From the NCBI RefSeq assembly GCF_988243305.1, contig NZ_OZ547136.1: DNA of 64,000 bases, one strand, 5' to 3'. A program made the position numbers and the translations under genes. This document shows, one piece after another, positions 10,653 through 64,000 of the stretch. Within the stretch, counting starts at the first letter, position 1; each line of letters begins with the position of its first letter. Under the pieces are notes generated by a model. That model saw only the letters and a list, made by a program, of their open reading frames with translations, was not told where the DNA came from and did no database searches.

Positions 10653-11177
10653 TCAGTTTTCCTCTTTTTTCATCTCAATCGCACTGGCGCGGATATGCAC
10701 CAGCAGGCGATAGTGGTGGCCGATACTTTCTACCGGCTCAATTTGTTTCCATTCTGTGGCCTGATCGTCTGAAAAATAGGCAATGACACCGATATAACCG
10801 GTTTTCTCATCCAGCTTGATCGGCGGCAGTGTTTTTACGGTGTCCGGCAACAGGTTGAAGTCCTGGTGATCGATATAGTTCTTCCCCAGCACGTCGGGCA
10901 GCGCGGTGGTGGCAATCTGATCGTAATCGGCGGCCTGGAATTTGGAGTCGTCGCTCAGATACACCAACTGGACATCCACCGGCGCGGCTTCGCCGTCCGC
11001 CGTCAGGTTGCTGTCCGGCTCGGTCAGCAGCGTGACGGTCAGTTCGGTTGACTGCTCCATCAGCTTTCCGACCTGAATATCCGGATTGCGGATCACTTGG
11101 CTGATTTTTTTCGCTGTTTCACAGCCAGTTAACACAACGCTCATCAGAACGCAGGCCAGAAACGCTTTGCCGTTCAT
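10653..11177 (-). CDS. tssJ: T6SS outer-membrane lipoprotein TssJ
   Basis: 174 aa; signal peptide with lipobox LTGC. Confidence 0.85.
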   Translation of the reverse strand: MNGKAFLACVLMSVVLTGCETAKKISQVIRNPDIQVGKLMEQSTELTVTLLTEPDSNLTADGEAAPVDVQLVYLSDDSKFQAADYDQIATTALPDVLGKNYIDHQDFNLLPDTVKTLPPIKLDEKTGYIGVIAYFSDDQATEWKQIEPVESIGHHYRLLVHIRASAIEMKKEEN

Positions 11178-12466
11178 GCTTCCGGCTCCCGCTGTTTTTC
11201 GCGCAGCACTCGGTCATAGACCTGGGCATAAACTTCATTGAACAGCATTTCAAATCCCTGCTGTCGGCTGGAGGCCAGTTCATCGTAATAGTTGCTGTAC
11301 ATCTGCCATGCCCAGGCGTTGTCCATTTTCTGGCGCAGCTCATGGCTGCGGCGGTATTGCGCAAAGCGGCGCATCAGGTTGCCCGGCGAGAAGGCGTCCA
11401 GCATGACACGCAACGCTTCCACAATCGCCGCCCGGTTGGCCTCTTCATGATGCCGGATGTTGCGCAGGCTTTCGGCGATGGCCGCAGGTGCTGCGAGATG
11501 TACCGGGCTTTTACCCTCGGCGAACATGACGTTCAGCGCGGTGGCATAGTCCATATCAAGGCGCAACGGGTTGTCTTCCAGTGGACGCAGGTGTTTATCC
11601 GACAGGCTGTTCTGTTGTTGTTGCAGACTCAGCAATCCCTTAATGGCGGCCTGCAACGCCCGTCCGGCCTCTTCGAGAAACTCATCCGCATCCTGAGAAT
11701 TGTGCAGCGTCAGCGGACACTCCATACCGCGCAGCAGCGGGGTTACGGCCAGGTGGTACTGCGCCATGGCAGAAAATTCATCGCCGTCCTCATGACGGGC
11801 ATTGCCGGGTGGCAGATCCATAAACGGCGTGTTGATCCCGTTTGCACCTGTCAGATCGGAGGCGGTGGCAACGGGCCGGGAAACGCGTGGGGCGATCGGA
11901 TCATCTGCCACCATCAGGCTTTCCGTCTGGAGTGCCTGGAGCGGATCGCTGGAAAAACCGTGCGCCACCGTGGGGGCAAGCTGATGCTGGAACGGCATTC
12001 CCGGATACGCCGGTTGTCCCTCGGTGGTCAACAGGGTGTCCGCCAGACTGTCGCGGTTCATTACAATCGTTTCCGGGGTCGCCATCCGCTCGTCATAGGT
12101 AACAGCTGCACCGTCATGCAGAAACACTTTCAGCGCCAGTGCGCCGAGCTGGATCTCATCCCCCTGGCGCAGGCGGATGAGCGCATCGGAAGAGACCGGG
12201 GCCAGATTAATCATCAGTCCCGGCGTCAGGCACCGCAGGCAATAGGCTCCGTCGTGCCGGATAACGGTACAGGCACGCGCAGCAATGCTTCCCGCCCGGT
12301 CCTGTACCTGCCAGTGACATTCCGGCGTATGGCCAATATCACCGCCGTTTTCGCTGAACAGGCATTTTGCGGCGCGTCCGCTTTCCAGTTCGTTGCCATT
12401 CATCACCTGTAAAGTCAGTGAGGCCTGGCGGGATTGCTGTTTTTCCTCAGCCATAAGTGGTTCCAT
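11174..12466 (-). CDS. tagH: T6SS-associated FHA-domain protein TagH (Fha)
   Basis: N-terminal FHA-like domain (...IGHTPECHWQVQD...CTVIRHDGAYCLRCL...GDEIQLGALALKV); ORF track start 12616 is probably too far upstream; preferred ATG at 12466 (MEPLMAEEKQQ) lies 5 nt from the tssG stop. Confidence 0.8.
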   Translation of the reverse strand: MEPLMAEEKQQSRQASLTLQVMNGNELESGRAAKCLFSENGGDIGHTPECHWQVQDRAGSIAARACTVIRHDGAYCLRCLTPGLMINLAPVSSDALIRLRQGDEIQLGALALKVFLHDGAAVTYDERMATPETIVMNRDSLADTLLTTEGQPAYPGMPFQHQLAPTVAHGFSSDPLQALQTESLMVADDPIAPRVSRPVATASDLTGANGINTPFMDLPPGNARHEDGDEFSAMAQYHLAVTPLLRGMECPLTLHNSQDADEFLEEAGRALQAAIKGLLSLQQQQNSLSDKHLRPLEDNPLRLDMDYATALNVMFAEGKSPVHLAAPAAIAESLRNIRHHEEANRAAIVEALRVMLDAFSPGNLMRRFAQYRRSHELRQKMDNAWAWQMYSNYYDELASSRQQGFEMLFNEVYAQVYDRVLREKQREPEA

Positions 12467-34081: not shown

Positions 34082-35821
34082 TCAACTCAACGCCCCCATA
34101 ATCTTCAACTCCAGCTCGTCCGGCACTTCGTTATACGACAGCACATGCAGCCCCGGCGCAAACAACCTTGCATAACGCGCCAGCAAAGGACGCAACTGCG
34201 GCGGCACCAGCAGCACCGGGTCTTTCCCCGCCGCTTTCATCTGCTCTTTTACCTGCGGCATCGTACTCTGGAACTGGTTGAGCATATTCGGATCGACCGG
34301 CACGCTGTCGAGCATCACTTTCCCGCCCTGTTGCGCCTGATTCACCACGTTGGTCAGCAGATTTTCCAGTTCATTATTCAGCGTATACACCGCCAGCTCC
34401 TGCTTGCGAACGAACGGATGGGTAATGCTGCGCCGCAATGCCAGGCGCACATCGGCCGCCAGCAGGATATGATCTTTGGTCACTGTGCTACTGGCGACCA
34501 GCACGGTGGCGATGGTGACGATATCGCGCAGGGAAACGCCTTCGGTCAGCAGCGCCCGGTACACTTTCAACAACTGGCTGTAATTGAGTGCCGCGCTCAA
34601 ATCTTCCGCCAGCCGTGGTGCCATCGATGACAGGCGATTGTGTAACTGCGTGATGTCGTCATAGTTAAACAAATCAGGAATATAGCTGCGCACAATCTTG
34701 TTCACATGGGTGGCAATCACGCTGGCGCTGTCGATCACCTGATACCCCATATTCAGCGCCTTCGCCTTCTGCGCGGGCTGGATCCAGGTGACCGGCATCC
34801 CGTACGCCGGGTCGTTCCCCAGCACGCCGTCTATCTCGCCGTAGGTTTCGCTGGAGGGCAGCGCCATCAGTTTATCCGCCGGAATATCCGCTTCATCGGC
34901 CTTAATGCCGTTGATGAATATGGCGTACTGGCTGGGCTTGAGGCGGAAGTTTTCCCGAATGCGGATCTCCGGCAGCAGCACGCCGTTGCCGTCAGAAATC
35001 ACCTGCCGCACGCCGCGAATTCGCTGGGTGAGCGGGTTGCCCTGTGCTTTGTCCACCAACGCCACCAGCTTGTAGCCGAGACTTAAACTGATAGGCTCGA
35101 TCAGCGGAATGGTTTCCCAACTGACCTGTTGCTCGCTGGTTTCGGTGATAGTCCGGGTCAGCGTTTCGAGGCTTTTCTCTTCTGCCTCCGCCGCCTGCGG
35201 GCGTTTGCTCATCCGCCAGCCGGTAAAACCCAACAGGGCGCTGAACAGCAAAAACGGCAGATGCGGCATCCCCGGCACCACCGCCAGCACAAACATGATC
35301 CCGGTGGCGGTGTAGAGCACCGACGGGCTTGCCAGCAGCTGGTGGCGCACGTCATGGGCGATATCGCCGTTGTCGCTGACGCGGGTGACGATAATTGCCG
35401 CCGCGGTGGAGAGCAGCAGGGACGGGATCTGCGCCACCAGGCCGTCGCCGATGGTCATCAGCACATATTGCTGGAAGGCGGCATCGGCGCTCAGGTTGTA
35501 TTTGAAGATCCCGATACAGACGCCGCCGATCAGGTTGATCGCCAGAATCATCATCCCGGCGATGGCGTCCCCGCGCACAAACTTCGATGCCCCGTCCATT
35601 GCGCCGTAGAAATCAGCCTCGCTGGCAACATCTTTACGCCGGGTTTGCGCCTGCGCCTGGTTGATCAACCCGGCGTTAAGATCGGCGTCAATCGCCATCT
35701 GTTTGCCGGGCATCGCGTCCAGGGTAAAGCGGGCAGAAACCTCGGAAATACGCTCGGCCCCTTTGGTGACGACAATAAAGTTGATTGTCAACAGCGTCAG
35801 TAAATCCGAGCGTGAAAGCAT
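34082..35821 (-). pseudogene. lfhA: lfhA: 5'-truncated Flag-2 flhA homologue (promoterless fragment)
   Basis: 579-aa ORF homologous to FlhA from about residue 110 onward (...FIVVTKGAERISEVSARFTLDAMPGKQMAIDADLNAG...); lacks the FlhA N-terminal transmembrane region. Confidence 0.75.
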
Positions 35822-46208: not shown

Positions 46209-47462
46209 ATGCTGGAACAAATGGGCATTGCCGCGAAGCAAGCCTCGTATAAATTAGCGCAACTCTCCAGCCGCGAAAAAAATCGCGTGCTGGAAAAAAT
46301 CGCCGATGAACTGGAAGCACAAAGCGAAATCATCCTCAACGCTAACGCCCAGGATGTTGCTGACGCGCGTGCCAATGGCCTTAGCGAAGCGATGCTTGAC
46401 CGTCTGGCACTGACGCCCGCACGGCTGAAAGGCATCGCCGACGATGTGCGTCAGGTGTGTAATCTCGCCGATCCGGTGGGGCAGGTAATCGATGGCGGCG
46501 TACTGGACAGTGGTCTGCGTCTGGAGCGCCGTCGCGTGCCGCTGGGGGTGATTGGCGTGATTTATGAAGCGCGCCCGAACGTGACGGTAGATGTCGCTTC
46601 GCTGTGCCTGAAAACAGGTAACGCGGTGATCCTGCGCGGCGGCAAAGAAACGTGTCGCACTAACGCTGCAACGGTGGCGGTGATTCAGGACGCCCTGAAA
46701 TCCTGCGGCTTACCGGCGGGTGCCGTGCAGGCGATTGATAATCCTGACCGTGCGCTGGTCAGTGAAATGCTGCGTATGGATAAATACATCGACATGCTGA
46801 TCCCGCGTGGTGGCGCTGGCCTGCATAAACTGTGCCGCGAACAGTCGACGATCCCGGTGATCACAGGTGGTATAGGCGTATGCCATATTTATGTTGATGA
46901 AAGTGCAGAGATCGCTGAAGCCCTGAAAGTAATCGTCAACGCGAAAACTCAGCGTCCGAGCACATGTAATACGGTAGAAACGTTGCTGGTGAATAAAAAC
47001 ATCGCCGATAGCTTCCTGCCAGCATTAAGCAAGCAAATGGCGGAAAGCGGCGTGACATTACACGCAGATATAGCTGCGCTGGCGCAGTTGCAGGCAGGCC
47101 CCGCGAAGGTGGTGGCTGTTAAAGCCGAAGAGTATGACGATGAGTTTCTGTCATTAGATTTGAACGTCAAAATCGTCAGCGATCTTGACGATGCCATCGC
47201 CCATATTCGTGAACACGGCACGCAACACTCCGATGCGATCCTGACCCGCGATATGCGCAACGCCCAGCGTTTTGTTAACGAAGTGGATTCGTCCGCTGTT
47301 TACGTTAACGCCTCTACGCGTTTTACCGACGGCGGCCAGTTTGGACTGGGTGCGGAAGTGGCGGTAAGCACACAAAAACTCCACGCGCGTGGCCCAATGG
47401 GGCTGGAAGCACTGACCACTTACAAGTGGATCGGCATTGGTGATTACACCATTCGTGCGTAA
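46209..47462 (+). CDS. proA: Gamma-glutamyl phosphate reductase ProA
   Basis: 417 aa; starts 12 nt after the proB stop. Confidence 0.9.
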
Positions 47463-47576
47463 ATAAAACCGGGTGATGCAAAAGTAGCCATTTGATTCAC
47501 AAGGCCATTGACGCATCGCCCGGTTAGTTTTAACCTTGTCCACCGTGATTCACGTTCGTGAACATGTCCTTTCAGG

Positions 47577-47652
47577 GCCGATATAGCTCAGTTGGTAGAG
47601 CAGCGCATTCGTAATGCGAAGGTCGTAGGTTCGACTCCTATTATCGGCACCA
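47577..47652 (+). tRNA. thrW: tRNA-Thr (anticodon CGU)
   Basis: 76-nt sequence GCCGATATAGCTCAGTTGGTAGAGCAGCGCATTCGTAATGCGAAGGTCGTAGGTTCGACTCCTATTATCGGCACCA with D-loop, CGT anticodon in ATTCGTAAT loop, T-loop GGTTCGACTCC and encoded CCA. Confidence 0.9.
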
Positions 47653-47665
47653 TTAAATCAATAAG

Positions 47666-47830
47666 TTACACATAATTAGTACCTTCCTTTTTTTTTGACT
47701 GGGACAAATTTGGGACCGATGGGTTCAGGACTGAGTCTATTTGCCGTGCGTGTTCGGTAAGGTGATTAGGCGCGAGGTGAGCATATCGACGAACCATTTC
47801 GATAGACTCCCAGCCTCCCATTTCTGAAAA
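47666..47830 (-). pseudogene. 3'-terminal remnant of a tyrosine-recombinase (phage/island integrase) gene
   Basis: Only about 55 C-terminal codons with integrase-like ...[28 protein letters not shown]...; stop is 14 nt from the thrW 3' end; upstream boundary approximate. Confidence 0.65.
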
Positions 47831-47836
47831 TGCAAG

Positions 47837-48388
47837 TTGGATGTCACAGACCGACAGTCCATGGCAGATTTCGTGCAAGCAGCGCTGGATAGCTGGGGGC
47901 GAGTTGATGTTCTTATCAATAATGCGGGCGTTATGCCGCTTTCACCGCTTGCAGCAGGAAAACAAGATGAATGGGAACTCACTATTGACGTGAATATCAA
48001 AGGCGTACTTTGGGGAATTGGCGCTGTACTTCCGGTGATGGAAGCACAGGGTTCCGGTCAGATAATCAATCTTGGTTCTATTGGTGCCCTTTCTGTTGTG
48101 CCCACAGGCGCAGTCTATTGTGCATCAAAATTTGCAGTACGGGCTATTTCGGATGGCTTACGGCAGGAAAGCTCGAAAATCCGTGTGACCTGCGTAAATC
48201 CTGGGGTTGTAGAAAGTGAACTGGCTTCAACCATTACCCATGTGGAAACCATGAAGTCAATGGACGCCTACCGTTCTGTTGCACTTCAACCCGCGGATAT
48301 TGCCCGTGCTGTAAGGCATATTATTGAGTCTCCCGAAAGCGTTGATACAACCGAAATTACCATCAGACCTACTGCATCTGCAAACTGA
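47837..48388 (+). pseudogene. 5'-truncated short-chain dehydrogenase/reductase (SDR) gene
   Basis: Homology starts within the SDR fold (...DVLINNAGV...; catalytic YCASK) but the N-terminal Rossmann TGxxxGIG segment is absent; overlaps the integrase remnant at a probable deletion junction. Confidence 0.6.
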
Positions 48389-48603
48389 AGAATAACTTTT
48401 ATATTCACGTTTTATTAAATAGGTCGGAAGGAAAATTTATATCCACTGTTTTGAATAGCAAGATGCATTATATTATGCATTGCTCACTCCGAAGGAGATG
48501 AAGGTTTAATTACAGTAAGATTATTTTCACAGGGAGTAAACATGACTCATATTTAATGCCTTTGTATATAAAACTCATCCTCTCAATTGTCAGGAGAATT
48601 AGC

Positions 48604-48834
48604 GTGAATACTATCTGTTCTTTAATTGTTGTTGTTACACTGTCTTTATTATCATTCAGTAGCGTCGCCAAAACGATTACTGCCGTCGGTTCAACCATCG
48701 ACAGCACTGAAAAAGAAATTTCTTTACAGGCAGCAAAACAAGGAAAATCATATAAAATTCTGGGCGCGTTTTTTAAGAACAGAGTTTATATGATAGCAAA
48801 GTTAATACCAGTCAGTAAAAATGATGCTTCGTAA
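48604..48834 (+). CDS. Small exported protein, DUF1471 (YdgH/BhsA/McbA)-like
   Basis: GTG at 48604 with AGGAGA 6 nt upstream; signal-peptide-like N-terminus followed by ...ITAVGSTIDSTEKEISLQAAKQGKSYKILGA...; about 76 aa; family call tentative. Confidence 0.45.
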   Translation: MNTICSLIVVVTLSLLSFSSVAKTITAVGSTIDSTEKEISLQAAKQGKSYKILGAFFKNRVYMIAKLIPVSKNDAS

Positions 48835-49535
48835 GGCTCATGGTCTAATTTTTAAGACATGATCAAGAAGCATGTCTATTGATTCAAAATTGTCATTATT
48901 ATGGCAATGGAATGCCCGACAAATGACGCTATACCATCCTTCTGTACCAGTCGTCCTGCTAATCCCACCGATGCTTCGGTCTGGAGTGGTAAATTAATAT
49001 TGGACACAGTTTTATTTTCTCTCTTTTTCGAGGGGGGGATATCAACAGGAAGAATACATCCCTAAGCGGTTAATGCTGGCGTAATCAATAGACCAACATT
49101 AATCACGGATGATTACCAATCAGACTGAAATGGTTAAATCGTCGAATTCATATTTAATACGTTTTCTTTCGCCGCTGAACAACTTGAAAAGGATACATAT
49201 TTTAAATATCAGTGAAGTGAACAGTTTATTGCCATTATTAATAGAGATGGAGGAATAAATACGCGTATTCGACTATTGCAACAAAAACAACGATGATGAT
49301 CAGTTTTCATAATGAAGTAACCTGACAGATATAAAAATGTTGATTGAGGCTAAATGCCCGGATGAAGGTTGTCGAGGGAGCCAGGTGGTTTTTTCTTTTG
49401 GGTGATCTCCATTGCTGGATAGTCCCCTTGTACAGATAAGCCTGCTCTTTCTCGCTCAAAGCAGACCCTGGAATTGAACGCAGAGGGACTACCTGACACA
49501 ATTTTGCACAGTGAAGAGTCGGTCGTTATTAACGT

Positions 49536-50420
49536 TCAGATTTTCAATGTATCAATGACCATCCGCAGGGCGGGGGAGACGTTGCGATGAGGGTAATAGA
49601 GAAACAATCCCTCCATTCGCAGGCTGTAACGCTGCAACACCCTGATAAGCTTACCGTGTTCTAAATCATCCGCGACCAGTTCAACAGGAACATAGGCCAA
49701 TCCGAGGCCCAGCCGGGCGGCTTCTGCTTCCATATAGCTGTCGGATAGGGCCCATTGCCCTTCAGGGCGATGAGTGATTTTTTTATCATCCTGATTGAGT
49801 TCCCACTGGTATACGCTGCCGTCGGCAAACTGATAGGCGATACAGGGATGCGCCTTTAAATCCGCCGGGGTTTGCGGAAAACCATAGCGACGAAAATGTT
49901 CCGGAGTCCCCACAATTGCCATCTCCATATCGGGCGTGATGCGTACCGCGACCATACCCTGGCCGACTTCAGGCCCCAGGCGGACACCTGCATCGAATCT
50001 TTCCTCGATGATATCGACGAACCGGCTCTCATTTATCAGTTCAAGCCGGATATCAGGATATCTCTGTTTAAATACCGCCAGCTTTGGCAGCAGGCATTTA
50101 TCAATCGCGTGCTGGCTGGCATTGATACGCACCGTGCCGGAGGGCGTCTCTCGATAGTGCGCCAGCGTGGCAAGCCCAAGATCTAACATTTCAAATCCAG
50201 ATGCCGTCTTCTGGTAGAGCTGCTCGCCTGCTTGTGTCAGCGACAGTTTACGCGTGGTGCGCACTAGCAGCTGGACGCCCAGCCTTTCTTCAAGCTCGCG
50301 AACAGAACGGCTGACTCCTGACTGAGCAAGACCCAGCCGCTGAGCCGCTGCGGTAAAGCTGCCTTCCCGCACCACCTGCATAAACAGGTACAGCTCGTTG
50401 TAGTTCTCCCTTTTCGCCAT
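49536..50420 (-). CDS. LysR-family transcriptional regulator
   Basis: 294 aa; N-terminal helix-turn-helix FTAAAQRLGLAQSGVSRSVRELEERLGVQLL; divergent from the hydrolase gene. Confidence 0.8.
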   Translation of the reverse strand: MAKRENYNELYLFMQVVREGSFTAAAQRLGLAQSGVSRSVRELEERLGVQLLVRTTRKLSLTQAGEQLYQKTASGFEMLDLGLATLAHYRETPSGTVRINASQHAIDKCLLPKLAVFKQRYPDIRLELINESRFVDIIEERFDAGVRLGPEVGQGMVAVRITPDMEMAIVGTPEHFRRYGFPQTPADLKAHPCIAYQFADGSVYQWELNQDDKKITHRPEGQWALSDSYMEAEAARLGLGLAYVPVELVADDLEHGKLIRVLQRYSLRMEGLFLYYPHRNVSPALRMVIDTLKI

Positions 50421-50606
50421 TGAAACATCCCCCCTTCATGCCGGCAATCTCCGCATTAATTTATAACAATATGGTATTAATCTTAGCATTAATCGCCCCC
50501 TAATCAGCACTAATTCTGCTCACTATAATGACCCCATCAAAGTAAAGCACCGCAGCGTTGTCCGTCGGAAACCTGTATCTCTCTGTTGTTTTTTATGGGG
50601 ATTTTT

Positions 50607-51743
50607 ATGAAAGCCTTCACCCGCACGCTAAAAACCGCGATGCCGACCATGCTGCTTTTCGCATCATTAAGTGGAGTCACGACAATGAGTTATGCTGATT
50701 CAACCAATCCTAATGCCCCTGTGTCCATGACAGATAAATGGGATAAAACGTTCGCCGAGAGCCAGAAAGTCGATCACCGTAAAGTCTCGTTCCCGAACCG
50801 ATATGGCATCACCTTAGTGGGCGATCTTTACCTGCCTAAAGACCGTGGCGATCGCAAGCTGGCGGCGATTGCGGTCAGTGGGCCATTTGGCGCGGTGAAA
50901 GAGCAATCCAGCGGCTTGTATGCGCAGACGCTGGCGGAACGAGGGTTTGTTACCCTGGCGTTCGATCCTTCTTACACCGGGGAAAGCGGCGGCTATCCGC
51001 GAAACGTCGCCTCACCGGATATCAACACTGAAGATTTCAGCGCGGCGGTGGATTTCTTAGGGCTGCAAAAAGAGGTAGATCGCAACCGTATCGGGCTGCT
51101 CGGTATTTGTGGCTGGGGCGGCATGGCGCTGAACGACGTGGCGATGGATACCCGCGTTAAAGCGGTAGCTACCAGCGTGATGTATGACATGAGCCGGGCG
51201 ATGGGTCATGGTGTGGGGGATGGCAAAGACCGTTATTCTACCGCCGACCGTCGTGCCGTTCTGCAATATCTGAATGAACAGCGCTGGCAGGATGCGCAGA
51301 GCGGAACGTTCGCTCACGGTGGTCATGATATTAATGTCGATAGCAACGGCAAGGTCAGTGCGGGCGAGCGCATTCTGCCAGAAACGCTGCCGGCAAATCC
51401 TCATCCGGTACTGAAAGAGTTCTTTGACTACTATCGCATGCCGCGCGGCTTCCACGAACGTTCCGTTAACTCTACCGGGGCGTGGACGGCAACGATGCCG
51501 CTGTCATTTATGAATATGCCGCTGTTGAGCTACGCCAGTGAAATCACCATTCCGACGCTGATTGTGACCGGTGAGAAAGCACATTCACGCTATTTTGCTG
51601 AAGATGCTTACAAGGCGGTTGGCAGTAAAGACAAAGAGTTGGTGGTGGTACCAGGGGCAAATCACGTGGACCTGTACGATAACGTGGCCGGAAAAATACC
51701 TTTCGCGAAGTTCGAACAATTTTTCCAGACCAAACTGAAATAA
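50607..51743 (+). CDS. Secreted alpha/beta hydrolase (dienelactone-hydrolase-like)
   Basis: ORF track 50586..51743; start at ATG 50607 (MKAFTRTLK...) preceded by GGGGA; signal peptide; nucleophile-elbow-like GICGWGG. Confidence 0.65.
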   Translation: MKAFTRTLKTAMPTMLLFASLSGVTTMSYADSTNPNAPVSMTDKWDKTFAESQKVDHRKVSFPNRYGITLVGDLYLPKDRGDRKLAAIAVSGPFGAVKEQSSGLYAQTLAERGFVTLAFDPSYTGESGGYPRNVASPDINTEDFSAAVDFLGLQKEVDRNRIGLLGICGWGGMALNDVAMDTRVKAVATSVMYDMSRAMGHGVGDGKDRYSTADRRAVLQYLNEQRWQDAQSGTFAHGGHDINVDSNGKVSAGERILPETLPANPHPVLKEFFDYYRMPRGFHERSVNSTGAWTATMPLSFMNMPLLSYASEITIPTLIVTGEKAHSRYFAEDAYKAVGSKDKELVVVPGANHVDLYDNVAGKIPFAKFEQFFQTKLK

Positions 51744-51818
51744 AACCTCTCCTGAATTGATGCAAAGCCACCGGCCATAGGCTGGTGGCTTTTATCCTGA
51801 TCTTTGTGAAATTTCACT

Positions 51819-53012
51819 ATGTCGACACTAAGCCAAACACTATCACCTCATCATCAGCGCGCATACTGGGGCGGTATTTTTGCCATGACCCTGTGCGTGT
51901 TTGTGCTGATTGCTTCTGAATTTATGCCCGTCAGCCTGCTCACGCCGATTACCCGCGATTTAGGCGTGACGGAGGGGCTTGCAGGGCAGGGGATTGCTAT
52001 CTCCGGCGCGCTGGCGGTTCTGACCAGCCTGACGCTTTCAACGCTAGCTGGAAAGATGAATCGTAAGTTCCTGCTGCTGGGGATGACGGTTCTGATGGCC
52101 GTATCGGGGCTTATTATTGCGCTGGCTTCCAGTTATCTGATGTATATGGTCGGTCGTGCGATGATTGGTGTGGCTATTGGCGGATTCTGGTCGATGTCAG
52201 CGGCAACGGCGATTCGTCTGGTGCCGCAGCATCAGGTCACGCGTGCGCTGGCAATTTTCAACGCCGGTAATGCGCTGGCGACGGTCGTGGCCGCACCGCT
52301 GGGAAGCTATCTGGGGGCTACGGTCGGATGGCGAGGCGCTTTCTTGTGCCTGGTGCCCATCGCGGTTGTCGCCTTTATCTGGCAGTGCATCAGCCTGCCA
52401 AGCATGGATGCGAATAAAAGCCACACTTCATGTGGCGCGGTATTCCGCTTATTTAGCCGCCGCATGGTTGTGGTCGGCATGATAGCTTGTGGCCTGTTTT
52501 TCATGGGGCAGTTTGCGCTATTCACCTATGTGCGCCCGTTTCTGGAGTCGGTGACACGGGTTAATTCCTTAGGCTTGTCGTCGATTTTGCTGATTATCGG
52601 CGTGGCCGGTTTTATTGGCACGCTGGTTGTTTCGGCATTTCTCAACAGAAAATTCTACCCCACGCTGATGGCCATACCCGGACTGATGGCCGTCATTGCC
52701 ATCGGTCTGATGCTTACCGGGCATCACGTCTGGACGGTCTCGCTGCTGTTAGGACTCTGGGGCATGCTGGCCACCGCCGCGCCAACCGGATGGTGGACAT
52801 GGATTGCGCGTACGTTGCCTGACAACGCCGAAGCTGGAGGCGGGCTCATGGTCGCGGTGATTCAGCTCGCCATCGCCCTTGGATCAACGGCAGGAGGCAT
52901 TGTGTTTGACCGCCTTGGCTGGCAGAGCACGTTTGCTATGAGTAGCGTGCTGCTCCTTTGCGCTGGCGTACTGACCTTTGTTACCGCACGCCAGAAGGCC
53001 GGTGCGCTTTAG
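51819..53012 (+). CDS. MFS-family transporter
   Basis: 397 aa; about 12 predicted hydrophobic helices. Confidence 0.75.
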   Translation: MSTLSQTLSPHHQRAYWGGIFAMTLCVFVLIASEFMPVSLLTPITRDLGVTEGLAGQGIAISGALAVLTSLTLSTLAGKMNRKFLLLGMTVLMAVSGLIIALASSYLMYMVGRAMIGVAIGGFWSMSAATAIRLVPQHQVTRALAIFNAGNALATVVAAPLGSYLGATVGWRGAFLCLVPIAVVAFIWQCISLPSMDANKSHTSCGAVFRLFSRRMVVVGMIACGLFFMGQFALFTYVRPFLESVTRVNSLGLSSILLIIGVAGFIGTLVVSAFLNRKFYPTLMAIPGLMAVIAIGLMLTGHHVWTVSLLLGLWGMLATAAPTGWWTWIARTLPDNAEAGGGLMVAVIQLAIALGSTAGGIVFDRLGWQSTFAMSSVLLLCAGVLTFVTARQKAGAL

Positions 53013-53055
53013 TCCGGCGAGGGCGCGCGTTGCTGAATAAGTTACACAAGGCGAT

Positions 53056-53088
53056 GAGCGCCCACTATGGGTTGGGCGCTCTTTTAAA
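53056..53088 (+). terminator. Rho-independent terminator after the MFS transporter gene
   Basis: 9-bp stem GAGCGCCCA / TGGGCGCTC with 8-nt loop, followed by TTTTAAA. Confidence 0.55.
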
Positions 53089-53192
53089 CGATTTAGGTGA
53101 TTTTCTAAAACGGCTACTGCAGATTTTTTCTCTTAATTTATGGGTATTTCCCCCGGAGGCGAGAAAGCGCTCTCCACGCCCGGCCGCAAGGA

Positions 53193-54149
53193 TCAGGACG
53201 ACGGGGGCAGGCATGAATCCTCATCCTGATGGAGACGTACAGAGGCGACTTCTGCCAGCACGGAGAGTGCCAGAGTATGCGCATCCCGGGCTTTGGGGAA
53301 TATCCCGACGGGTGCCCGGATTTGCGCTGTCTCCTCCCTGGACCATCCCAGCTCGTGGAGCTTTTGCAGACGTAAAGTGTGGGTTCGATAGCTGCCCAAT
53401 GCGCCGAGATAAAAGGGTTTTGCTTCTCGCGCGGCCTGCAACACTGGCAGCTCCCGGTTGAGATCATGGCACAGCAAAATGACCGCCGTATCGGTATCGA
53501 TCTGAGCGCTGGCTGAGGCCGGAAAAAGATCGAAGATATGGCTGTCATAGCCTGTGGCTGCTGCAAGACTCGCGGTTGCCTGCGCTTCAAGAGAACGTCC
53601 GTAAATCATCAGCCTGACGCATGGCCTGAACCCCACCTCAAAGCCATTGAGATTCCAGCCCGTCCGGGTTTGCGTGGGCAGGCACACCAGCGATTGAGCT
53701 TGCGGATCGTAGCGCAGACCCGCCGGTTTTCTCTGTTCCAGGCGGTTCAGCACGGCGAGCAGAGGCTGTGCCGAGCGTAGTTTATGGAGCGTCAGCGTGA
53801 TCCCACCGCCGCAGGGCAGAACGATGTCAAACCACGGCGAACCTTCGCCATAGCGAATTTCGCGATCGCGGTCTGAGCCCATCATCTCCAGCGCTTCAAA
53901 AGCGGCAGCGGCCTCCACGCAGCCGCCAGAGACAAAACCGCAATAACGACCATCTTCGCGCACCACCATCTGTGCCCCGAGCGGGCGCGCCGCGCCGCCG
54001 CGTATTTCCACCAGCGTCACCAGCACCGCTCCTTTACCGGACATTAGCGCCTCTACGGCGAAGCGCAGAATGGTCCGGTGGTCATCGGTGAGAAACGCCT
54101 GCTCTGGCTTATGCCAGTGCTCGTCTTTGTCAAAAAGCGAGTATGACAT
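53193..54149 (-). CDS. paoD: Molybdenum cofactor insertion chaperone PaoD (XdhC family)
   Basis: 318 aa; matches YagQ/PaoD as recalled. Confidence 0.85.
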   Translation of the reverse strand: MSYSLFDKDEHWHKPEQAFLTDDHRTILRFAVEALMSGKGAVLVTLVEIRGGAARPLGAQMVVREDGRYCGFVSGGCVEAAAAFEALEMMGSDRDREIRYGEGSPWFDIVLPCGGGITLTLHKLRSAQPLLAVLNRLEQRKPAGLRYDPQAQSLVCLPTQTRTGWNLNGFEVGFRPCVRLMIYGRSLEAQATASLAAATGYDSHIFDLFPASASAQIDTDTAVILLCHDLNRELPVLQAAREAKPFYLGALGSYRTHTLRLQKLHELGWSREETAQIRAPVGIFPKARDAHTLALSVLAEVASVRLHQDEDSCLPPSS

Positions 54150-54158
54150 TGTTCCTCC

Positions 54159-56357
54159 TTAAACCACATCCGGCAGTTTATCGAGCAGCTTATCCAGAGT
54201 GATGGGATAATCCCGTACCCGAATACCGGTGGCGTTATACACCGCGTTGGCGATAGCCGCGCTCACGCCGCACAGGCCCAGCTCACCGACACCTTTGGCC
54301 TTCATCGGGGAGGATATGGGGTCGGTATCATCCAGGAAAATCACCTCCTGTTTTGGGATATCCGCATGGACCGGCACCTCATACCCCGCCATATCGTGAT
54401 TAACGAAGTAGCCCAAACGGTCATCTACCGCCAGCTCCTCCATCAGTGCCGCGCCCATGCCCATAGTCATCGCGCCAATGACCTGGCTGCGTGCAGTTTT
54501 CGGATTCAGGATGCGTCCTGCAGCACACACAGCGAGCATACGCCGGACCCGAACTTCTCCCGTCGCGCTATGCACGCCGACCTCCACAAAATGCCCGGCA
54601 AAGGTCGATTGCTGGTACTCCTTGCTCAGTGTTCCGAATTCAATGCTCTCTTCCGCTGTCAGTCTGCCGCCTGCGGTGGCCTCATGTAGCATGGCGCTTC
54701 GGGTACCGTTGGTAATCTTGCCGTCGGCAAACTGCGACTGCTCAGGATCAAACCCGACTGCCGAGGCAATCATTTCGCGAAGCTTCACACAGGCGGCGTA
54801 AACGCCGGAGGTGGAGGTATTCGCGCCCCATTGTCCACCAGAACCCGCAGAAACCGGGAAACTGGAATCGCCGAGGTGAACCGCAACCTGCTCCAGCGGT
54901 ACGCCAAGCATTTCCGCTGCCGTCTGGGCCAGAATGGTGTAGCTGCCAGTGCCAATATCGGTCATGTCCGTTTCCACGGTAACGGTGCCGTTTTGTTCTA
55001 GGTGAACCCGCGCACCCGATTTTTCCAGCAGATTATTGCGAAAGCCCGCCGCAACACCGTGGCCGACTAGCCACTCCCCGTCGCGTACCTGTCCGGGTGT
55101 GGCGTTGCGCAGCTTCCAGCCAAATTTATCCGCTCCGGTGCGCAAGCACTCGATAAGCTGACGGCGAGAGAAGCGGCGCGTCGGGTCGGCGGGGTCAACC
55201 TGAGTGTCATTCAGGATGCGAAACTCGACGGGATCGATGCCCGCTTTTTCCGCCAGTTCGTCGATCGCGATTTCGAGCGCCATCAGACCGGGGGCTTCGC
55301 CGGGCGCACGCATGGCGTTCCCTTCCGGCAAATCAAGCGTGGCGAGCCGCAGGCCGGTATGACGATTCGCCCCTGCGTAAAGAAATTCGCTTTGCTGTAC
55401 CGCCGTTTCCGGCGTGCCGCCGGGCAGGTTTCCGGACCAGCTTTCATGTGAGATAGCGGTGATTTTCCCGCTCTGGTCGGCACCGATACGCAGGTGCTGA
55501 AGGGTGGCGGGGCGGTGCGTGGTGTTATTGGGAATAGTGGGGCGGGGGAGCATCACTTTAACCGGACGTTTCACCGCACGGGCGGCGAGGGCCGCCAGCA
55601 GCGCATCGCTTCTCAGGAACAGCTTGCCGCCAAACCCTCCACCGATATACGGGGAGATAATACGCACATTCTCCACGGGCACTTTCAGCGTTTTTGCCAG
55701 ATCGGTGCGGCACCAGTCAATCATCTGATTTGAGGTCCAGAGGGTAAGCTTATTTCCATCCCAGACGGCCATCGAGGCATGCGGCTCCATCGCCATATGG
55801 CTCTGGTCCGGGGTCGTGTAGGTAGCATCAATCTTCACCGCAGCGGAGGTGAAAGCCCCGTCAAAGTCACCAACATTTTTATCGGGCGTGTCTTCCGGCG
55901 GCTGACTGACGGCCTGTTTCTCGTCCGCCAGGGAGTAAGCTCCTTTATTACGGCGATAGTGCGCCTGCACCAGCGAGGCCGCCGCTCGCGCCTGTTCGAA
56001 GGTCTCGGCCACTACCAGCGCAATGGCCTGATGATAGTGCTCAATAGTGGGGCCGGCTAACAGCCTGGCGGTGTTTTTGTCGCCTTTGCCGAGTGCCCCA
56101 GCGTTACTGGCGGTAATGACAGCCAGTACGCCCGGCGCTTTTTGCGCGGCGTCCGTATCAAGGGCGGTGAGGCGTCCTTTGGCAATGGCAGAACTGACGA
56201 TATAACCATAGGCGGCGTTGGGGGCTTCTTCATGCCATTCGTAGGCGTAGCGTGCCGTGCCGGTAGTTTTCAGCGGTCCGTCGATGCGGTCATGGGGACG
56301 ACCGACAACCTTCAGCTGATCGATCGGGTTTTCCCCTGCGGGTTTATCAAATTTCAT
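54159..56357 (-). CDS. paoC: Periplasmic aldehyde oxidoreductase molybdopterin subunit PaoC
   Basis: 732 aa; xanthine-dehydrogenase-family molybdopterin subunit. Confidence 0.9.
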
Positions 56358-57310
56358 GCCTGTGCCCTCGCTTCAGCCAGTACGGAGGCAAGCGTTCGCT
56401 TCGCCAACAGGAGTTTAAAGGTGTTTTCAGCGGTGGGATGGGCGCTGGCGAACAGCGCGTCATACACGGCCTGCGCCCCCTGGGATAGCTGAGCATCCGC
56501 AGCCTCAATGCGCCAGGGCTTATGTGCTACTCCGCCCAGCGCGACGCGCCCGCTGCCGTCAGGCTGAATAATCGCCGCGACCGATACCAGGGCAAAGGCG
56601 TAGGAGGCGCGATCGCGCACCTTGCGGTAGATATGTTTTCCGCCGAGCGGCGGAGGTAACGTCACCGCAACGATAAGCTCACCGGGAAGCAGGGCGGTTT
56701 CAATGTGCGGCGTTTTTCCCGGAGGGTGATAAAAATCAGCCAGTGTGATACTGCGAGTCTTTCCCTCCGGCGTGATGGTTTCCACCACCGCATCCAGCAA
56801 CCGCATTGCGACCGCCATATCGCTCGGATGGGTGGCAATGCAGGCTTCGCTTACGCCTACCACCGCGTGCTGACGGCTAAAGCCTTCAAGTGCCGCGCAG
56901 CCGCTCCCGGGCAGGCGCTTATTGCAGGGCTGATTGGTGTCGTAAAAATAGGGGCAGCGCGTGCGCTGGAGCAGATTACCTGCGGTGGTTGCCTGATTAC
57001 GTAACTGACCAGACGCGCCAGCGAGCAGGGCGCGGGAGAGTACCGCGTAATCACGACGAACGCGCTCGTGAGCTGCCAGGTCGGTGTTCCGTACCAGTGC
57101 GCCGATGCGCAGCCCACCCGCGTCGGTCACTTCAATCTTATCGAGCCCGAGCCCGTTCACATCGATAAGGTGGGTTGGCGTTTCAATTTCCAGCTTCATC
57201 AGGTCCAGCAGATTGGTCCCGCCCGCGATAAATTTTGCGCCGGGTACGCGCTGAGCGCTAAGTGCCGCCTCGGCAGGGGTGTTCACACGTTCATAGGTAA
57301 ACGCCTTCAT
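56354..57310 (-). CDS. paoB: Aldehyde oxidoreductase FAD-binding subunit PaoB
   Basis: 318 aa; overlaps paoC start by 4 nt. Confidence 0.9.
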
Positions 57311-57996
57311 GATTTTATCTCCCCCGCAGCGTCTTCAATGGCGGCAAGGATGTTAGCGTATGCACCACAGCGACAGATGTTGCCGCTCATACGTTCACGG
57401 ATCTCATCGGCAGTTCTTTCTGGAGGGGAAACCAAATCGACCGTGACGTGACTGGGAATGCCGTCCTGAATCTCTTTTAGCACCGCTACTGATGAGCAAA
57501 TTTGCCCGGAGGTGCAGTAGCCGCACTGGAAGCCATCATGCTTGATAAAGGCCGCCTGCATGGGGTGAAGATTCTCTGGTGAACCCAGGCCTTCAATGGT
57601 GGTGATCTCGGCCCCCTGATGCATGACTGCAAGCGTCAGGCAGGCATTAAGCCTGCGACCATTGACCAGCACGGTACAGGCTCCGCACTGCCCGTGATCG
57701 CAACCTTTCTTGGTACCGATCAGATGCAGATTTTCACGCAAAGCGTCCAGTAGCGTGGTTCGGGTATCAACGTCCAACTGCTCGGTTTTGCCGTTCACCT
57801 TAAGTGTCAGGGGCATTATCTCTGGCGCGGGTGTAGCTGCCGGAACGCTTGCTGCAAGCGTAGAATGAGGATAAACCACGGCGGTCGCCGCCGTTGCGGC
57901 GCTGACTTTAATCAGATCGCGACGGGTCAAACTAAAATCGTGCGGCTCGTGCTTCCCAACCCGATTATCTTCGGGGTATTCGCCTTGGTTGCTCAT
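57307..57996 (-). CDS. paoA: Aldehyde oxidoreductase 2Fe-2S subunit PaoA (Tat-exported)
   Basis: 229 aa; twin-arginine signal ([18 protein letters not shown]); ferredoxin-type Cys clusters. Confidence 0.9.
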
Positions 57997-58402
57997 ACCA
58001 GGCCTCCGGTATTCTAAAGGGGAAAATAAGAGAGCGTTGCGAGAGTTCTGATGCTTTTTTAAACGTTAAGCATAGTCGGTGAGAGCAGGAGGATTATTCT
58101 TAAAACGCGAATGCAGCTATGAGCCCGGCTAATTAATTCATATTCGCCGATGACGGGAGCTCGTTTATTGCTTTAGTTGTGCGATGCAAAAACCGATAAG
58201 GAAACCTGTGATTGTCAGCTCAGCATCACCCTACAAATCTTTGTCACTTTTAACATAAAAATAGGGAGAAATGATGGTGCTTATATTCATTGGCGATTAG
58301 GAAACTATTTTGTTATACAAAACAATACAGTTCTTTACATTTGTCTTGTTTTATGAATACTCCTGAAGAGGTGTATAACATAATGGTACAAGCAGGGTAG
58401 AT

Positions 58403-59017
58403 ATGAATATATTTGAACAAACTCCACCGAACCGCAGACGTTATGGTCTTGCTGCATTCATTGGGCTGATTGCTGGCGTTGTTTCCGCATTTGTGAAGTG
58501 GGGGGCTGAAGTTCCATTGCCGCCACGTAGCCCGGTGGATATGTTTAATGCAGCGTGTGGCCCGGAATCATTAATCAGGGCTGCTGGGCAAATTGATTGC
58601 TCCCGTAATTTTCTCAATCCTCCGTATATTTTTCTTCGAGACTGGCTAGGGCTGACAGATCCCAATGCGGCTGTTTATACCTTTGCCGGGCATGTCTTTA
58701 ACTGGGTTGGCGTTACGCACATTATCTTTTCGATAGTGTTTGCCGTTGGTTACTGTGTGGTCGCTGAAGTATTTCCAAAAATTAAACTCTGGCAGGGCTT
58801 ACTGGCAGGTGCTTTAGCCCAACTTTTTGTTCATATGATTTCATTCCCTCTCATGGGACTGACGCCACCTCTGTTTGATCTCCCTTGGTATGAGAATGTT
58901 TCTGAAATTTTTGGACATTTAGTCTGGTTCTGGTCCATTGAAATTATTCGCAGAGATTTACGAAACAGAATTACTCATGAGCCAGACCCTGAGATCCCTT
59001 TAGGCTCAAACAGATAA
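58403..59017 (+). CDS. yagU: Inner membrane protein YagU (DUF1440)
   Basis: 204 aa; matches YagU as recalled. Confidence 0.85.
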
Positions 59018-59265
59018 TGCATTGAATAATAAAAATGGCGCAAATGCAGCGCCATTTTTATAGGTTAAAAACATTGCTTTTTACTTTCTGAAGCAGATAG
59101 CCAGTGAGTACATCACGCTACTTCAGGATGCTGTAGATCCGGAGAACACTATAGAGGAAGAGGCATTGTTGCTGGCAGATGGAAGAAGTTTCGGGTTTTG
59201 TTATCCCTGAAAAACGAAGCCCCGCGATTATAGCTGGCGGGGCAGTGCAATTAATTATTGCATAT

Positions 59266-59595
59266 TTATAACGGTGTCAGCCCGTATTTAGCTCTTGCAC
59301 GATTGCAAGCCTCATTGACGACTCCGTTCTCACCAGACATGGCGAATTCTCTGCACGTGGACGATCGATTTTTATATATCGTGCAGCAGGCATTTTTGCC
59401 CGGTGTTCCTGCAAGGGCAATACATCGGGGATTTTTCTGATTGGTACCGCTCATGCATCGGTGAAAAGGGGATATTTGTTCAGTGAGCCTGGCGGGAATG
59501 GTACCGCCAGCATCGTCGGCTTCGGCCCAGTAAAAAGAGACGCGGAAAAATGCACAACAGGCACCACACGTCATGCATGGATTCAGATTGCTCAT
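59266..59595 (-). CDS. ykgJ: Cys-rich YkgJ-family protein
   Basis: 109 aa; [11 protein letters not shown] motif. Confidence 0.8.
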
Positions 59596-59908
59596 AATTC
59601 ACCAGTACAGCTTTAAATCGTAAAGAGAACAGCGGTACATCGTATGTAAGAACGTACCGCGGTTGGCTGGTGTACTTTCGATAGTGTGAGTATTGAATGA
59701 TTTCCAGCCTTTACCGATTTTACGTACTAATTCGTGAATAAACCACTCGTTAGCAGGCTGCCTGGTACCTTTCCGTGTCTCCTGAACACTATGGTGTGCA
59801 TATGAGAAAGCCCATCGTTACAGGTGATATTGACGATCGCGTCCACATCATTTAAACGATTATTTGAGTCTCTGAGGTGGAGTTCTTCCCTCGACCGATG
59901 GATAAGTC

Positions 59909-60619
59909 TTAGTCCGCCGAAGGGGGCTTAGCCGGACAGGAATCGCTAATCTTAATGAATTTGTCGTTATAGACCAGATAATGATTCCCCGGCTGACGTA
60001 ACTCAGGCTGATGAACAACGTCTCCCGGACGTAGGTACCAGGCATCGCCTTCCTCTTCGGTCGAATCACATCCTGGCTTAATCAGTAGCTTAAACCATGT
60101 GTTGCCAGTGTTACTTACCGTTCCTGTCACCTGGTCGAAGGACCATTTAAACTGAACCTGACGTGGTCGTACTACCAGAATGGTATCCATCACCACCACC
60201 GGCTCCGTGCTGACCTCGCCGCCGGTTGGGCTGCGTCTTGTCTGGTTGCGAGTGGGGACCTCGCGAAATGAGACCCGGTAGTAGCGCTCGCGGTTATCCT
60301 GTGGACCATGATAGTAAAATTTAAAATACTCGCTCTCACCAGCCTGCAACGCCAGCTGGCGGGGGGCGAAAAGCAGTTCACCATCCACCGGTCGGGTGCG
60401 TAATTCACTGCTGCCCGGGCTATCGATAGCACTGATGGCAATACGGTATATCCGCGCGCTTTTGTTGTTATTCACTACACGTTTGCTGACAAAGTCAGTC
60501 TCGGACGGCAGCGAAAATGTCAGATTGCCGACCGAAATCGCCTGTGTCAAAGGTGCCGCCAGCATACAGACCGCTGTCAGCAGGGCCTTAGTTAATGTTA
60601 CGCCACGTCGCCTGAACAT
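59909..60619 (-). CDS. ecpE: E. coli common pilus chaperone EcpE
   Basis: ORF track 59909..60664; start at [14 protein letters not shown]... gives 236 aa with signal peptide. Confidence 0.8.
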
Positions 60620-62231
60620 GAATTTCTCCTGAAGCGCTGACTTCGCCAAACCAGCCGTTATCATCTACCGTACGCAGCGAAATGGCGTTATCCATTGGAA
60701 TCGAAAATTTGACTGTGGTCTTATCCATCTGCCCCACTTCGCCAGAGATATCAGTCCACGGTGTGGTCAGCCACAGCGCATCGGTCATATCCCGCCAGCT
60801 ATCATCGCACCCGGCATCGTAGGTTTTTGTAGCTCCGTTGCGGGTAATAAAGGAAAGTGTCGCCGGGAACGGTACTTTCGCCTTACCGTCATCGGAGCTG
60901 AAGACACAATAGGAGCGCCCGCCAATCACCTGCGCGGGTCCGGTCACCTTGATCAGCACTTCGTCGGCAGCTGTTTTACCGCTGGTGGTTACGATATAGC
61001 CGAAATCGAGTGCCGACTCGCCGCTGCCAACATATCCCTCCCGCGACGGTGTCTGAGTATATTCATCGGAGATAATACTGATGCTGAAATCACGGGGTTT
61101 GATAATCAGCGTGTTGGAGGTAGAAAATTCATACCAGCCAGACTCCGGTGATGTGGTGTTCTGAAAGCGAAAGTTGAATAGATCTTTAGTGTTGATATCG
61201 CTGATCCCGAGGTTCACCATCTGCTTAAAGAAGTTGCTCGAGAAGAAAACATAGATCGAGTCTGCGCTCTTCATCTCGTTGAAGGTGTAGTAATAGGCAG
61301 TATTGCTCACCGGTTTCCATGAACTGCCATTCAGACTGAACTGCATATCGTACGCCCCGACGGCCGAGGCTAACGACGAGTTGGCGATCGCCGGGAATAT
61401 ATGGATTGAGGTGTTGCTGAGTCCGTTTGTTTGCAGGGTATAGTTAACCATCTTACAACTTAATCCTGAACGGCTGCCGATGGTTTGCGTCCGGCAGTCG
61501 GCGTTCCCTTCGCCCAGAGTCGGTACTCCGTCGCTGTTGATAAACACCTCCGCCAGCGAGTGGGTATTTATCAACCGTAGATTTGCTGCTTTCGTATGGG
61601 TGACGTTGCGAACATACCAGTTGCCGGAGGCCTGATCCTTACAGCGTGCGCCGCTGCTGGCGTCATAGTTCACAGAGGTCTGGCAGGCATTGATGGTCAT
61701 TGTAAAGCTGCTGCCGACGGGCATTTGTTGCAGATACTGGTAAAACGCGTCTGACAACATGCCGTGCATCCACTTCGCGCCGCCGCTGGTCACCGTCGCG
61801 CCATAAAATCCACTGGCGTCGGTGGTTTGCGGCAGGATAAGACTGGTGGTCATATTACACCCAGCGTACCAGTTGATGCAGCGCAAGCCAGTTAAAGGAG
61901 ATGAAACTGGTGAATTTTCCAGCCACATATCAAACTTCCAGTTGGTATAAAGGCCGGTGTTGTAACCGTTATCAATGTAGCCGAGGCTTTGCTGATAGAT
62001 GGTTCCTGAACCATTGTATTTTAAACCGGTCCAGCGGTTGGCACCGGTCAGGCGCGGATCCAGCGCCCCGCCAGGAGTGACGAAAAAGTTGTCGTCTGAG
62101 TTGTTTTCGACAAACACAAACTCGCGTGCCGGAGCATCCGCCCAGGTTGTTTTGCTCACTGCCGCTCTGAGCGCGGTTGCAGGCCAGATTAGCGCAAAGA
62201 TTATCATCGCTATCAGTAGGTTAACTCTCAT
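60588..62231 (-). CDS. ecpD: E. coli common pilus tip adhesin EcpD
   Basis: 547 aa with signal peptide; matches EcpD/YagW. Confidence 0.8.
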
Positions 62232-64000
62232 TCTCTTCTCCTGTCTGCGTCACCGCCGCCCACGATGAGAGGCCGCTGCAGACCACATCACCGACCCAGA
62301 CGGCACCGCGCGCCTGGTTGAGTTCCAGTGCCACTTCGCAGGTTTTATTGCCACTGTAGCGAAAATCGATAGTGGGGTATTTCTTATCTACGTCCATGAC
62401 AAACTCGCCGTTTTCATCGGTTCGGGTTCGGCCGATATGGTTGTTAATCCGTGCGTTAGCCAGCAGTGTGCCGTCTTCCGCACGGATACGACCGGAGACG
62501 GTAACCATCTGCTTCACCTCTGGCTCAATGACAGCGACATTGCCTGGATAGAGAGTCAGATGGCTTTTGCGACCGCTGACGATATCGTAACTGTCGAGTG
62601 AGTTTTTGCTGTTCTGCAACTCCACCTCATATCTTCCATAGGGAGAGAGCGGGAGATAGTTACGCTTGCCGTTAAGCGTGAAAATCCGCCCGTTGATTTT
62701 GGCGCTGATCTGACCATCGTTCTCCAGGCCAGTGTCGAATATCACCCCAGCGTTGCCATCGGTCCGCCCGCTGGCAGCGATGTTTTTACCCTGCCAGCCG
62801 ACGCTGCCGTTGGCGGTCAAATTGGTATTGATGTAGCCGTCCGCCGCGCTATTAACGTTCAGCGTTCCGCTGGCGTAACGAGCGTCGAACTGTGCATACG
62901 CCCCACCGCTGAGGGTTTTGTCATCACCGGTATCGCCGGAGATGGCTCGTGACAGATTGGCACCAACAGTGCGAATGGTCCCTTCATCAAACTGCTTGCG
63001 TGCTGACAGGTTTGCCATGGTGTAGCCGTTTTGATGAGTCATCCCTGCGCTAAACCAGTTGCCCAGTGGTAGCGAGAGATCGAGAGCGATATATTTCCCT
63101 GTATTGGCGTTGCTGTCGCCGTTGTTATAGCGCTGAATACCGGCCCGCAGGCCAAGCGAACCAAAGGTACCGCTGTAGACATTTTGATAGTAATCTGCCG
63201 TGTAATAATGGCTGTTGTAACGGCGGTCATCATTGTAGCTGATGCTGAATGTGCCCAGCTTCGACCACAGTGAGTTCAGGTTGAGTGTGCCGCCGATAGC
63301 ACGGTTGTCGGCATCGCTACGTCGCAATTGATTGCCAATGCGGGTTTTTTCCTGGTTAACCCACAGCGAACTAAAGCCTCCCGGTAGAGTGGCGCTGATG
63401 CTGCCGATGCTGCTCCATGAGCTGTCACTGGCCAGCATATTTTGCAGGTTAACGTTGATCGCCCCCCCAAGCGGCAGCGTCAGACGGGTTTCACCCACCG
63501 CCTGATTATCGTATCCATATCCCGTTGCCGCCCAGCTAAACGTACTCAGTGAGCCGGAGGTCGAGGCACCTGCCAGCCAACTCTCTTTAGCTGGTCGCGT
63601 CTTTTTCCCGTTTTCCGACCAGCGATCCATATGAAAGCTACCGCCCCATATCTGCCACGCCAGTGGTGCACCGACGCCGCGCCCCCGGCTAAACAGCTTA
63701 TTGACCCGTTGAGTGCGTTTGCTGATCACGCGACCGTTAACGATGACCTCAACTTCCACATCGTAAATACCGTACGGTAGACCCCGGGTATCCACTTCAT
63801 GATTGCCCATGGTGAAGTTCTGAACGCTTAGTAGCCGCCCATCACGGGTGAGATGTACTTCGCCCGCCGCCGGTAAAAAGGCGATCACTGGCGTGGCTGA
63901 ATGGCTGCTGTCGAAGATGGTGGAGCTGGCCTGGTTTCCCCAGGAAAGGCCGTAAATCTTCCCTGCTGAAATGGCGGTCATCGGCCCTAAGGACTGCAAG
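62221..64000 (-). CDS. ecpC: E. coli common pilus usher EcpC (partial; 5' end beyond window)
   Basis: 592 codons of an open frame running to the window edge; C-terminal portion of an outer-membrane usher. Confidence 0.8.

Follow-up and report, generated by a model that had tools for sequence, protein, structure and literature searches.

A probable prophage deletion scar at the thrW attachment site of Escherichia coli, joining an integrase remnant to a truncated SDR gene

The window, by which we mean the whole 64-kb stretch of DNA that was analysed, contains the proB-proA-thrW region of E. coli: proB and proA end at 47462 and are followed by thrW, which is the sole tRNA gene in the window; the only Rfam match in the region is this tRNA. 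Downstream of thrW lie two gene remnants on opposite strands. The features are, by position:

47577-47652, plus strand: thrW, an intact gene for tRNA-Thr with anticodon CGT (ARAGORN; Rfam tRNA, 71.8 bits)
47607-47652, plus strand: 46-nt attachment (att) core in the 3' half of thrW, ATTCGTAATGCGAAGGTCGTAGGTTCGACTCCTATTATCGGCACCA, as in the SfI/SfII/SfV/SfX/P22 phage group
47653-47665, no strand: 13-nt phage-derived spacer between the 3' end of the tRNA and the stop codon of int (match to SfIV attP and to the E105 prophage)
47666-47836, minus strand: integrase pseudogene, consisting of the last 56 codons and the stop codon (BLASTP against the E105 integrase; PHROG; PGAP)
47835-47836, no strand: putative deletion junction, an AG dinucleotide common to both parental sequences (2-nt microhomology; BLASTN against 06-00048)
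47835-48388, plus strand: pseudogene of an SDR-family oxidoreductase, without the first 56-57 codons (ortholog alignment; NCBIfam; PGAP)

The att core of the window is identical to the 46-nt sequence quoted for thrW-integrating phages (PMC3636060), and phages of the SfI/SfII/SfIV/SfV/P22 type are documented to integrate via this core into thrW, beside proA (PMC3636060, PMC2629481). Among the tRNA genes of E. coli, thrW is one of those targeted most often (PMC7545054), and P22/SfV-type integrase stubs or intact integrases beside thrW are very common in E. coli genomes. When the window is aligned with SfIV attP and with attB from the empty site of an O145 strain, the identity spans exactly 47607-47652, with phage-type sequence to the right; the 13-nt spacer differs from the empty-site sequence. 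Judged from these alignments, the core is attL, the left junction of a former element. The original prediction had looked to a further copy of the thrW 3' end as the mark of the other boundary (attR). The window holds only one copy of this end (25 nt, up to 3 mismatches, whole 64 kb), and nothing relevant was found when 47500-64000 was searched for a delimiting direct repeat; this is as expected from a deletion that extends past the boundary of the element. The pair of flanking repeats, attL and attR, that frames an intact element is therefore not found in the window.

The minus-strand stub had been described as the last ~55 codons of a tyrosine recombinase, ending 14 nt from the tRNA, with a lack of similarity to tyrosine recombinases named beforehand as the result that would speak against it. 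The comparison came out in favour: the stub, 56 codons and a stop, aligns with the extreme C-terminus of the intact, thrW-adjacent integrase of E105 (372 aa) with 49/54 identities (91%, E = 6e-34, BLASTP) and matches the integrase PHROGs phrog_1 (2.9e-08) and phrog_216 (6.4e-06). The Pfam model Phage_integrase (PF00589) gives a marginal match (E = 0.012) and the NCBIfam search of the stub gave none; as the piece is too short for profiles of either kind, the pairwise and PHROG comparisons are decisive. The stop codon lies at 47666-47668 on the minus strand. The integrase end is therefore adjacent to the tRNA as predicted, but the gap between them is 13 nt; the figure of 14 is the difference between 47666 and 47652.

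Over its last 52 codons the stub is nearly identical to the E105 integrase, and the four codons at its truncated, N-terminal-proximal end are those of a diverged allele. A megablast search of complete E. coli genomes for a full-length integrase with this allele returned only stubs, or SfV-type integrases that match up to the point of divergence. The stub keeps the stretch RRYAHL, which we take to be the site of the catalytic tyrosine in this integrase family, and lacks the HDLRHTWAS box and everything upstream of it that the intact protein has: the remaining catalytic domain and both DNA-binding domains are gone and no domain is complete. The stub is thus a gene fragment derived from the tyrosine recombinase family and no functional member of it.

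P4-family and CP4-type integrases had been proposed as the relatives to compare, but the affinities of the stub, traced through the E105 integrase, are of the P22/SfV type. The intact protein of E105 shares 98-99.5% identity with the Int proteins of SfI, SfII, SfIV and SfV and ~89% with integrases from P22-like Salmonella phages (L, ST64T, BTP1), and with these as its closest kin the P4/CP4 assignment was rejected. DNA of CP4-6 in K-12 departs from the window 9 nt past thrW (the K-12 match ends at 47661), which shows that another element lies to the right in K-12. Z1323HEC0462 has a P4-like satellite at thrW, but the integrase of this satellite is a different gene, located upstream of the same stub. 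On sequence grounds, the stub is the 3' end of the int gene of a P22/SfV-type, thrW-specific lambdoid element, standing at the attL of this element.

The prediction that the SDR gene lacks its N-terminal, cofactor-binding segment was borne out. From 47837 onwards, 183 residues can be aligned to residues 58-240 of an intact 240-aa ortholog with 181/183 identities (99%); the intact gene is present in O145:H28, in the O157-like strain M7638 and in 06-00048. The N-terminus that is missing from the window (MDKVILITGASSGIGEG...) carries TGASSGIG at residues 8-15 of the intact ortholog; the classical N-terminal dinucleotide-binding motif of SDR proteins, TGxxxGxG, is accordingly absent from the window copy, and alignment to the NCBIfam SDR models starts only at model positions ~50-71. 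Retained are NNAG, GSIGA...S and YCASK, with the catalytic residues (Ser and YxxxK). The plus-strand ORF 47837-48388 is an open frame of 183 codons that starts with a TTG at 47837; an in-frame TGA is found just upstream, at 47825-47827, and no ribosome-binding site is evident before the fragment. A promoter and terminator scan of 47400-48700 gave nothing attributable to the remnants, and nothing promoter-like or terminator-like within 47653-48500. Both remnants would be non-functional pseudogenes, the stub being predicted to be incapable of catalysing recombination, and neither ORF should be called a gene.

Among complete genomes, the best matches to the region reach only ~98.5% identity but are fully collinear over 24 kb, which places the source in an E. 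coli lineage near to, yet distinct from, those with complete RefSeq genomes. Other genomes carry the locus in different states. At the empty site of O145:H28 strain RM12581, 127 nt separate thrW from a minus-strand LysR gene, next to which stands the intact SDR gene; further on come a DUF1471-like ORF, a fragment of ykgR, another LysR gene and genes for a hydrolase and an MFS transporter. E105 has an occupied site, with thrW, an intact int on the opposite strand whose stop codon, like that in SfIV attP, is 13 nt past the tRNA, and then prophage genes. In 06-00048 the site is partly decayed: thrW is followed by an int stub of 68 codons and a broken HTH gene; then come a hypothetical gene, the gene of a 1069-aa reverse transcriptase, the AbiEi/AbiEii pair and a second, unrelated integrase stub, a C-terminal piece that abuts the LysR gene, with the intact SDR gene next to it. 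A 68-codon stub is present in 15.TR.026 too; here the right end of the island is at ykgR and not at the LysR-SDR pair. There are 260 complete genomes in which the longer stub stands directly before a broken HTH gene. According to the original prediction, thrW was once occupied by a tRNA-targeting element of which most has been deleted, and a comparison with a strain that carries an intact prophage there was proposed; E105 is such a strain, and when the locus is compared in its occupied, empty and partly decayed forms the claim is upheld.

Some further observations concern these relatives. Both 15.TR.026 (L006 8130-14460) and 06-00048 (L008 2960-9540) have an island of ~6.5 kb after the HTH gene, with the 1069-aa reverse transcriptase and AbiEi/AbiEii; relative to 06-00048, the window is without this island and without the second integrase stub. 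In an ST131 relative (L007 6381-8070), an 87%-identical stub adjoins another integrase pseudogene directly before yagU, and the LysR-SDR...pao block is absent from the 16-kb stretch that was read; here, deletion at the locus has had a different result.

The comparison with 06-00048 defines the junction. BLASTN aligns window 47400-47836 to positions 2489-2926 of the 06-00048 locus (L008) and window 47835-48886 to positions 10707-11754 of the same locus, that is, in two collinear blocks that overlap by 2 nt and between which 7,780 bp are missing from the window. The 12 nt at 47825-47836 match the diverged int allele of the longer stubs in 15.TR.026 and 06-00048; since these 68-codon stubs carry the same bases, the stub of the window runs to 47836. 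A breakpoint within int at 47824, followed by 10 nt of filler (47825-47834), had been read from the alignment with E105 and was rejected, as the longer stubs show the diverged allele at these positions. With a query that spans the junction, many genomes match the window perfectly through 47836 and then continue differently. The predicted range for the junction, 47830-47880, includes the true site, 47835-47836, at its low edge. The predicted overlap of stub and SDR gene on opposite strands was not confirmed: the minus-strand ORF 47666-47878 (70 aa) extends 14 codons (42 nt) into SDR antisense sequence, but the segments with homology share just 2 nt and the remainder is ORF run-on.

Very probably, then, the window carries the deletion scar of a prophage or related element at thrW, an attachment site of phages and islands. 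An element with a P22/SfV-type, thrW-specific integrase once integrated into the 3' half of thrW by recombination at the 46-nt core, and this left phage DNA including the 3' end of int directly downstream of the tRNA. In an ancestor of the window lineage, one illegitimate deletion of ~7.8 kb, of the microhomology-mediated, RecA-independent type, then probably joined the int codon that is 57th from the end to codon 57 of the SDR gene at the AG common to both. This deletion would have taken the rest of the element, any attR, the LysR gene, the LysR-SDR intergenic region with its promoter and 56-57 codons of SDR; the window has no attR because the deletion would have run through the position of attR and the LysR gene into the SDR gene. 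The junction bears no IS element, and for this reason a microhomology-mediated illegitimate deletion is the most likely mechanism, although a microhomology of 2 nt is weak evidence for any particular mechanism. Deletions of the illegitimate type commonly over-run the boundary of an element into chromosomal genes. If the ancestor resembled 06-00048, the reverse transcriptase/AbiE defence island would have been lost in the same event.

The single 7.8-kb step would be the most parsimonious path from one extant relative, and several smaller deletions could lead to the same state. The scar may have formed stepwise, with int truncated first inside the element and the island, the LysR gene and the 5' end of SDR removed by later deletions or by recombination between strains. 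We consider this possible but the less likely course. It draws on the 260 genomes in which the longer stub adjoins the broken HTH gene, which indicate that int was truncated once before the junction of the window was formed, and on 15.TR.026, where the island ending at ykgR shows that independent deletions do happen at the thrW locus. However, the window maps to 06-00048 in just two collinear blocks, and the final junction at 47835-47836 is a single breakpoint that is identical in all carriers read, so that a stepwise origin refines the single deletion rather than competes with it.

The distribution of the junction was assessed with a 181-nt query in 5,426 complete E. coli genomes, with a genome counted as a carrier when at least 80% of the query was covered. 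Carriers are rare (19/5,426), and the scar marks a minority lineage of E. coli that has lost a LysR-regulated SDR gene. The junction string is identical base for base in eight carriers, each an independent complete genome that was read directly. Carriers differ from the window by up to ~3% over 2.2 kb, and therefore the scar is either not recent or has been moved by recombination. In RefSeq genomes with the same junction, both remnants are PGAP pseudogenes, described as 'incomplete; missing N-terminus' (the integrase in L001 and L011-L015). A scar of this kind is an ordinary feature at a classic hotspot, and public annotation already lists both pieces as pseudogenes.

Polymorphism among nine scar-bearing SDR fragments comprises 8 nonsynonymous sites, one of them nonsense, and 7 synonymous sites; the premature stop is found in the fragment of one carrier, NY1601. 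Fixed differences to intact SDR orthologs number 1 nonsynonymous and 5 synonymous. The pN/pS of ~0.4 is based on only 15 polymorphic sites and is not significantly different from either neutrality or mild constraint. Although the sample is small, the presence of a nonsense allele and the change in ratio from 1:5 to 8:7 fit constraint before the deletion and relaxation after it.

These data bear on whether the remnants have been kept for a function, either because the phage-derived flank holds termination or processing signals for thrW or because a truncated SDR protein is made from the TTG at 47837. A run of T after the tRNA (47690-47698), the frequency with which P22/SfV-type stubs or intact integrases are found beside thrW, and an SDR frame that is still open over 183 codons with 99% protein identity to the intact ortholog could all be read in this way. 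We nevertheless regard a retained function as very unlikely: no site in 47653-48500 resembles a terminator or promoter and strains with an empty site have an intact thrW without any phage flank, while the SDR fragment is without the glycine-rich motif for dinucleotide binding on which SDR enzymes depend, follows immediately on an in-frame stop with no evident ribosome-binding site, contains a nonsense mutation in one carrier and shows a polymorphism among carriers that is relaxed in comparison with the pattern before the deletion. There is likewise only a slight chance that the 184 nt of phage DNA influence which thrW-targeting elements integrate or form tandem arrays, or supply signals to the 3' flank of thrW; an active flank of this kind could explain the persistence of P22/SfV-type stubs in many lineages, as well as the stacking of an ICE and of a P4-like satellite before the scar in two relatives. 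A misassembly or a chance ORF, which the 42-nt run of ORF 47666-47878 into SDR antisense (as in ORF noise) and the weak Pfam support of the stub might suggest, is refuted by the presence of the junction in 19 independently sequenced complete genomes, eight of them read directly, and by highly significant similarity to intact genes on both sides.

As the scar of a thrW element, the locus can be compared with known systems. The phages SfI, SfII, SfIV, SfV, SfX, P22, L and ST64T have the same 46-nt att core in thrW as the window, and thrW lambdoid phages have the same order, with thrW followed by int on the opposite strand and the int stop ~13 nt past the tRNA; the window differs in that it has only 56 codons of int and is without xis, attR and phage genes. 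CP4-6 of K-12, PAI III536 and the vat/tsh islands occupy the same thrW hotspot and are, like the element of the window, decayed or fixed integrative elements; their integrases are presumably of the P4/CP4 type, unlike the stub. In contrast to CP4-6 and the PAI islands, only 184 nt of element DNA are left in the window (47653-47836). The thrW islands CP4-6, PAI III536 and vat/tsh measure 20-77 kb (PMC7545054). There is no material difference between the window and the prophage remnants that PGAP annotates at tRNA hotspots, which likewise consist of a partial integrase and a partial flanking gene.

The remnant cannot excise because it has no integrase, no excisionase and no attR. Both thrW and the att core are untouched, and the locus therefore continues to serve both as a tRNA gene and as a place where new elements can land. 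Two relatives have made use of the scarred site. One is 19KM1776, where an ICE that carries Trb transfer genes and an integrase of its own lies between thrW and the scar, and where a 49-nt copy of the thrW 3' end directly before the stub is the attR of this ICE. In Z1323HEC0462, thrW and the scar are separated by a P4-like satellite with genes for an integrase, AlpA, an Icd-like protein, a DUF927 primase and ogr/Delta; the copy of the thrW 3' end used by this satellite is an imperfect one of 17 nt. With thrW and the 46-nt core intact, the site in the window should still be usable, as it has been in these relatives. The scar is a small and clean example of how deletions that erase a prophage may over-run into chromosomal genes while the tRNA attachment site stays re-usable.

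The new elements were read in 19KM1776 at L005 1-5050 and in Z1323HEC0462 at L010 3130-14900. The ICE of 19KM1776 carries TrbJ/TrbL, and the same strain also gives a match to PtuA of retron Ec78; the satellite of Z1323HEC0462 carries a YefM/YoeB pair. The 112-nt segment of 19KM1776 that contains the 49-nt copy of the thrW 3' end is labelled 'tRNA-Ser' by PGAP, apparently in error.

The DNA past the SDR fragment, at 48400-49500, has a GC content of 36-39% and is mostly non-coding. It includes a 92-aa ORF (48556-48834) with a weak match of the BhsA/DUF1471 type, which is frameshifted in strain 18KM2445; in near-identical genomes, the counterpart of 48400-49500 contains a 69-nt fragment of ykgR that is annotated by PGAP as a pseudogene.

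Elsewhere in the window, positions ~50-23400 are occupied by a type VI secretion cluster, with TssM, TssA, ClpV/TssH, TssK, TssF, the large sheath subunit and VgrG all above the NCBIfam cut-offs. A minus-strand FlhA-like ORF of 579 aa (34082-35821) aligns to the FlhA model from position ~114 and scores 594 bits against a curated cut-off of 772 bits; it is probably an N-terminally truncated, lfhA-like relic of a second flagellar system. On the plus strand, 59023-59223 is a full-length match to the Rfam IS009 RNA family, with 189.8 bits at a gathering score of 117.
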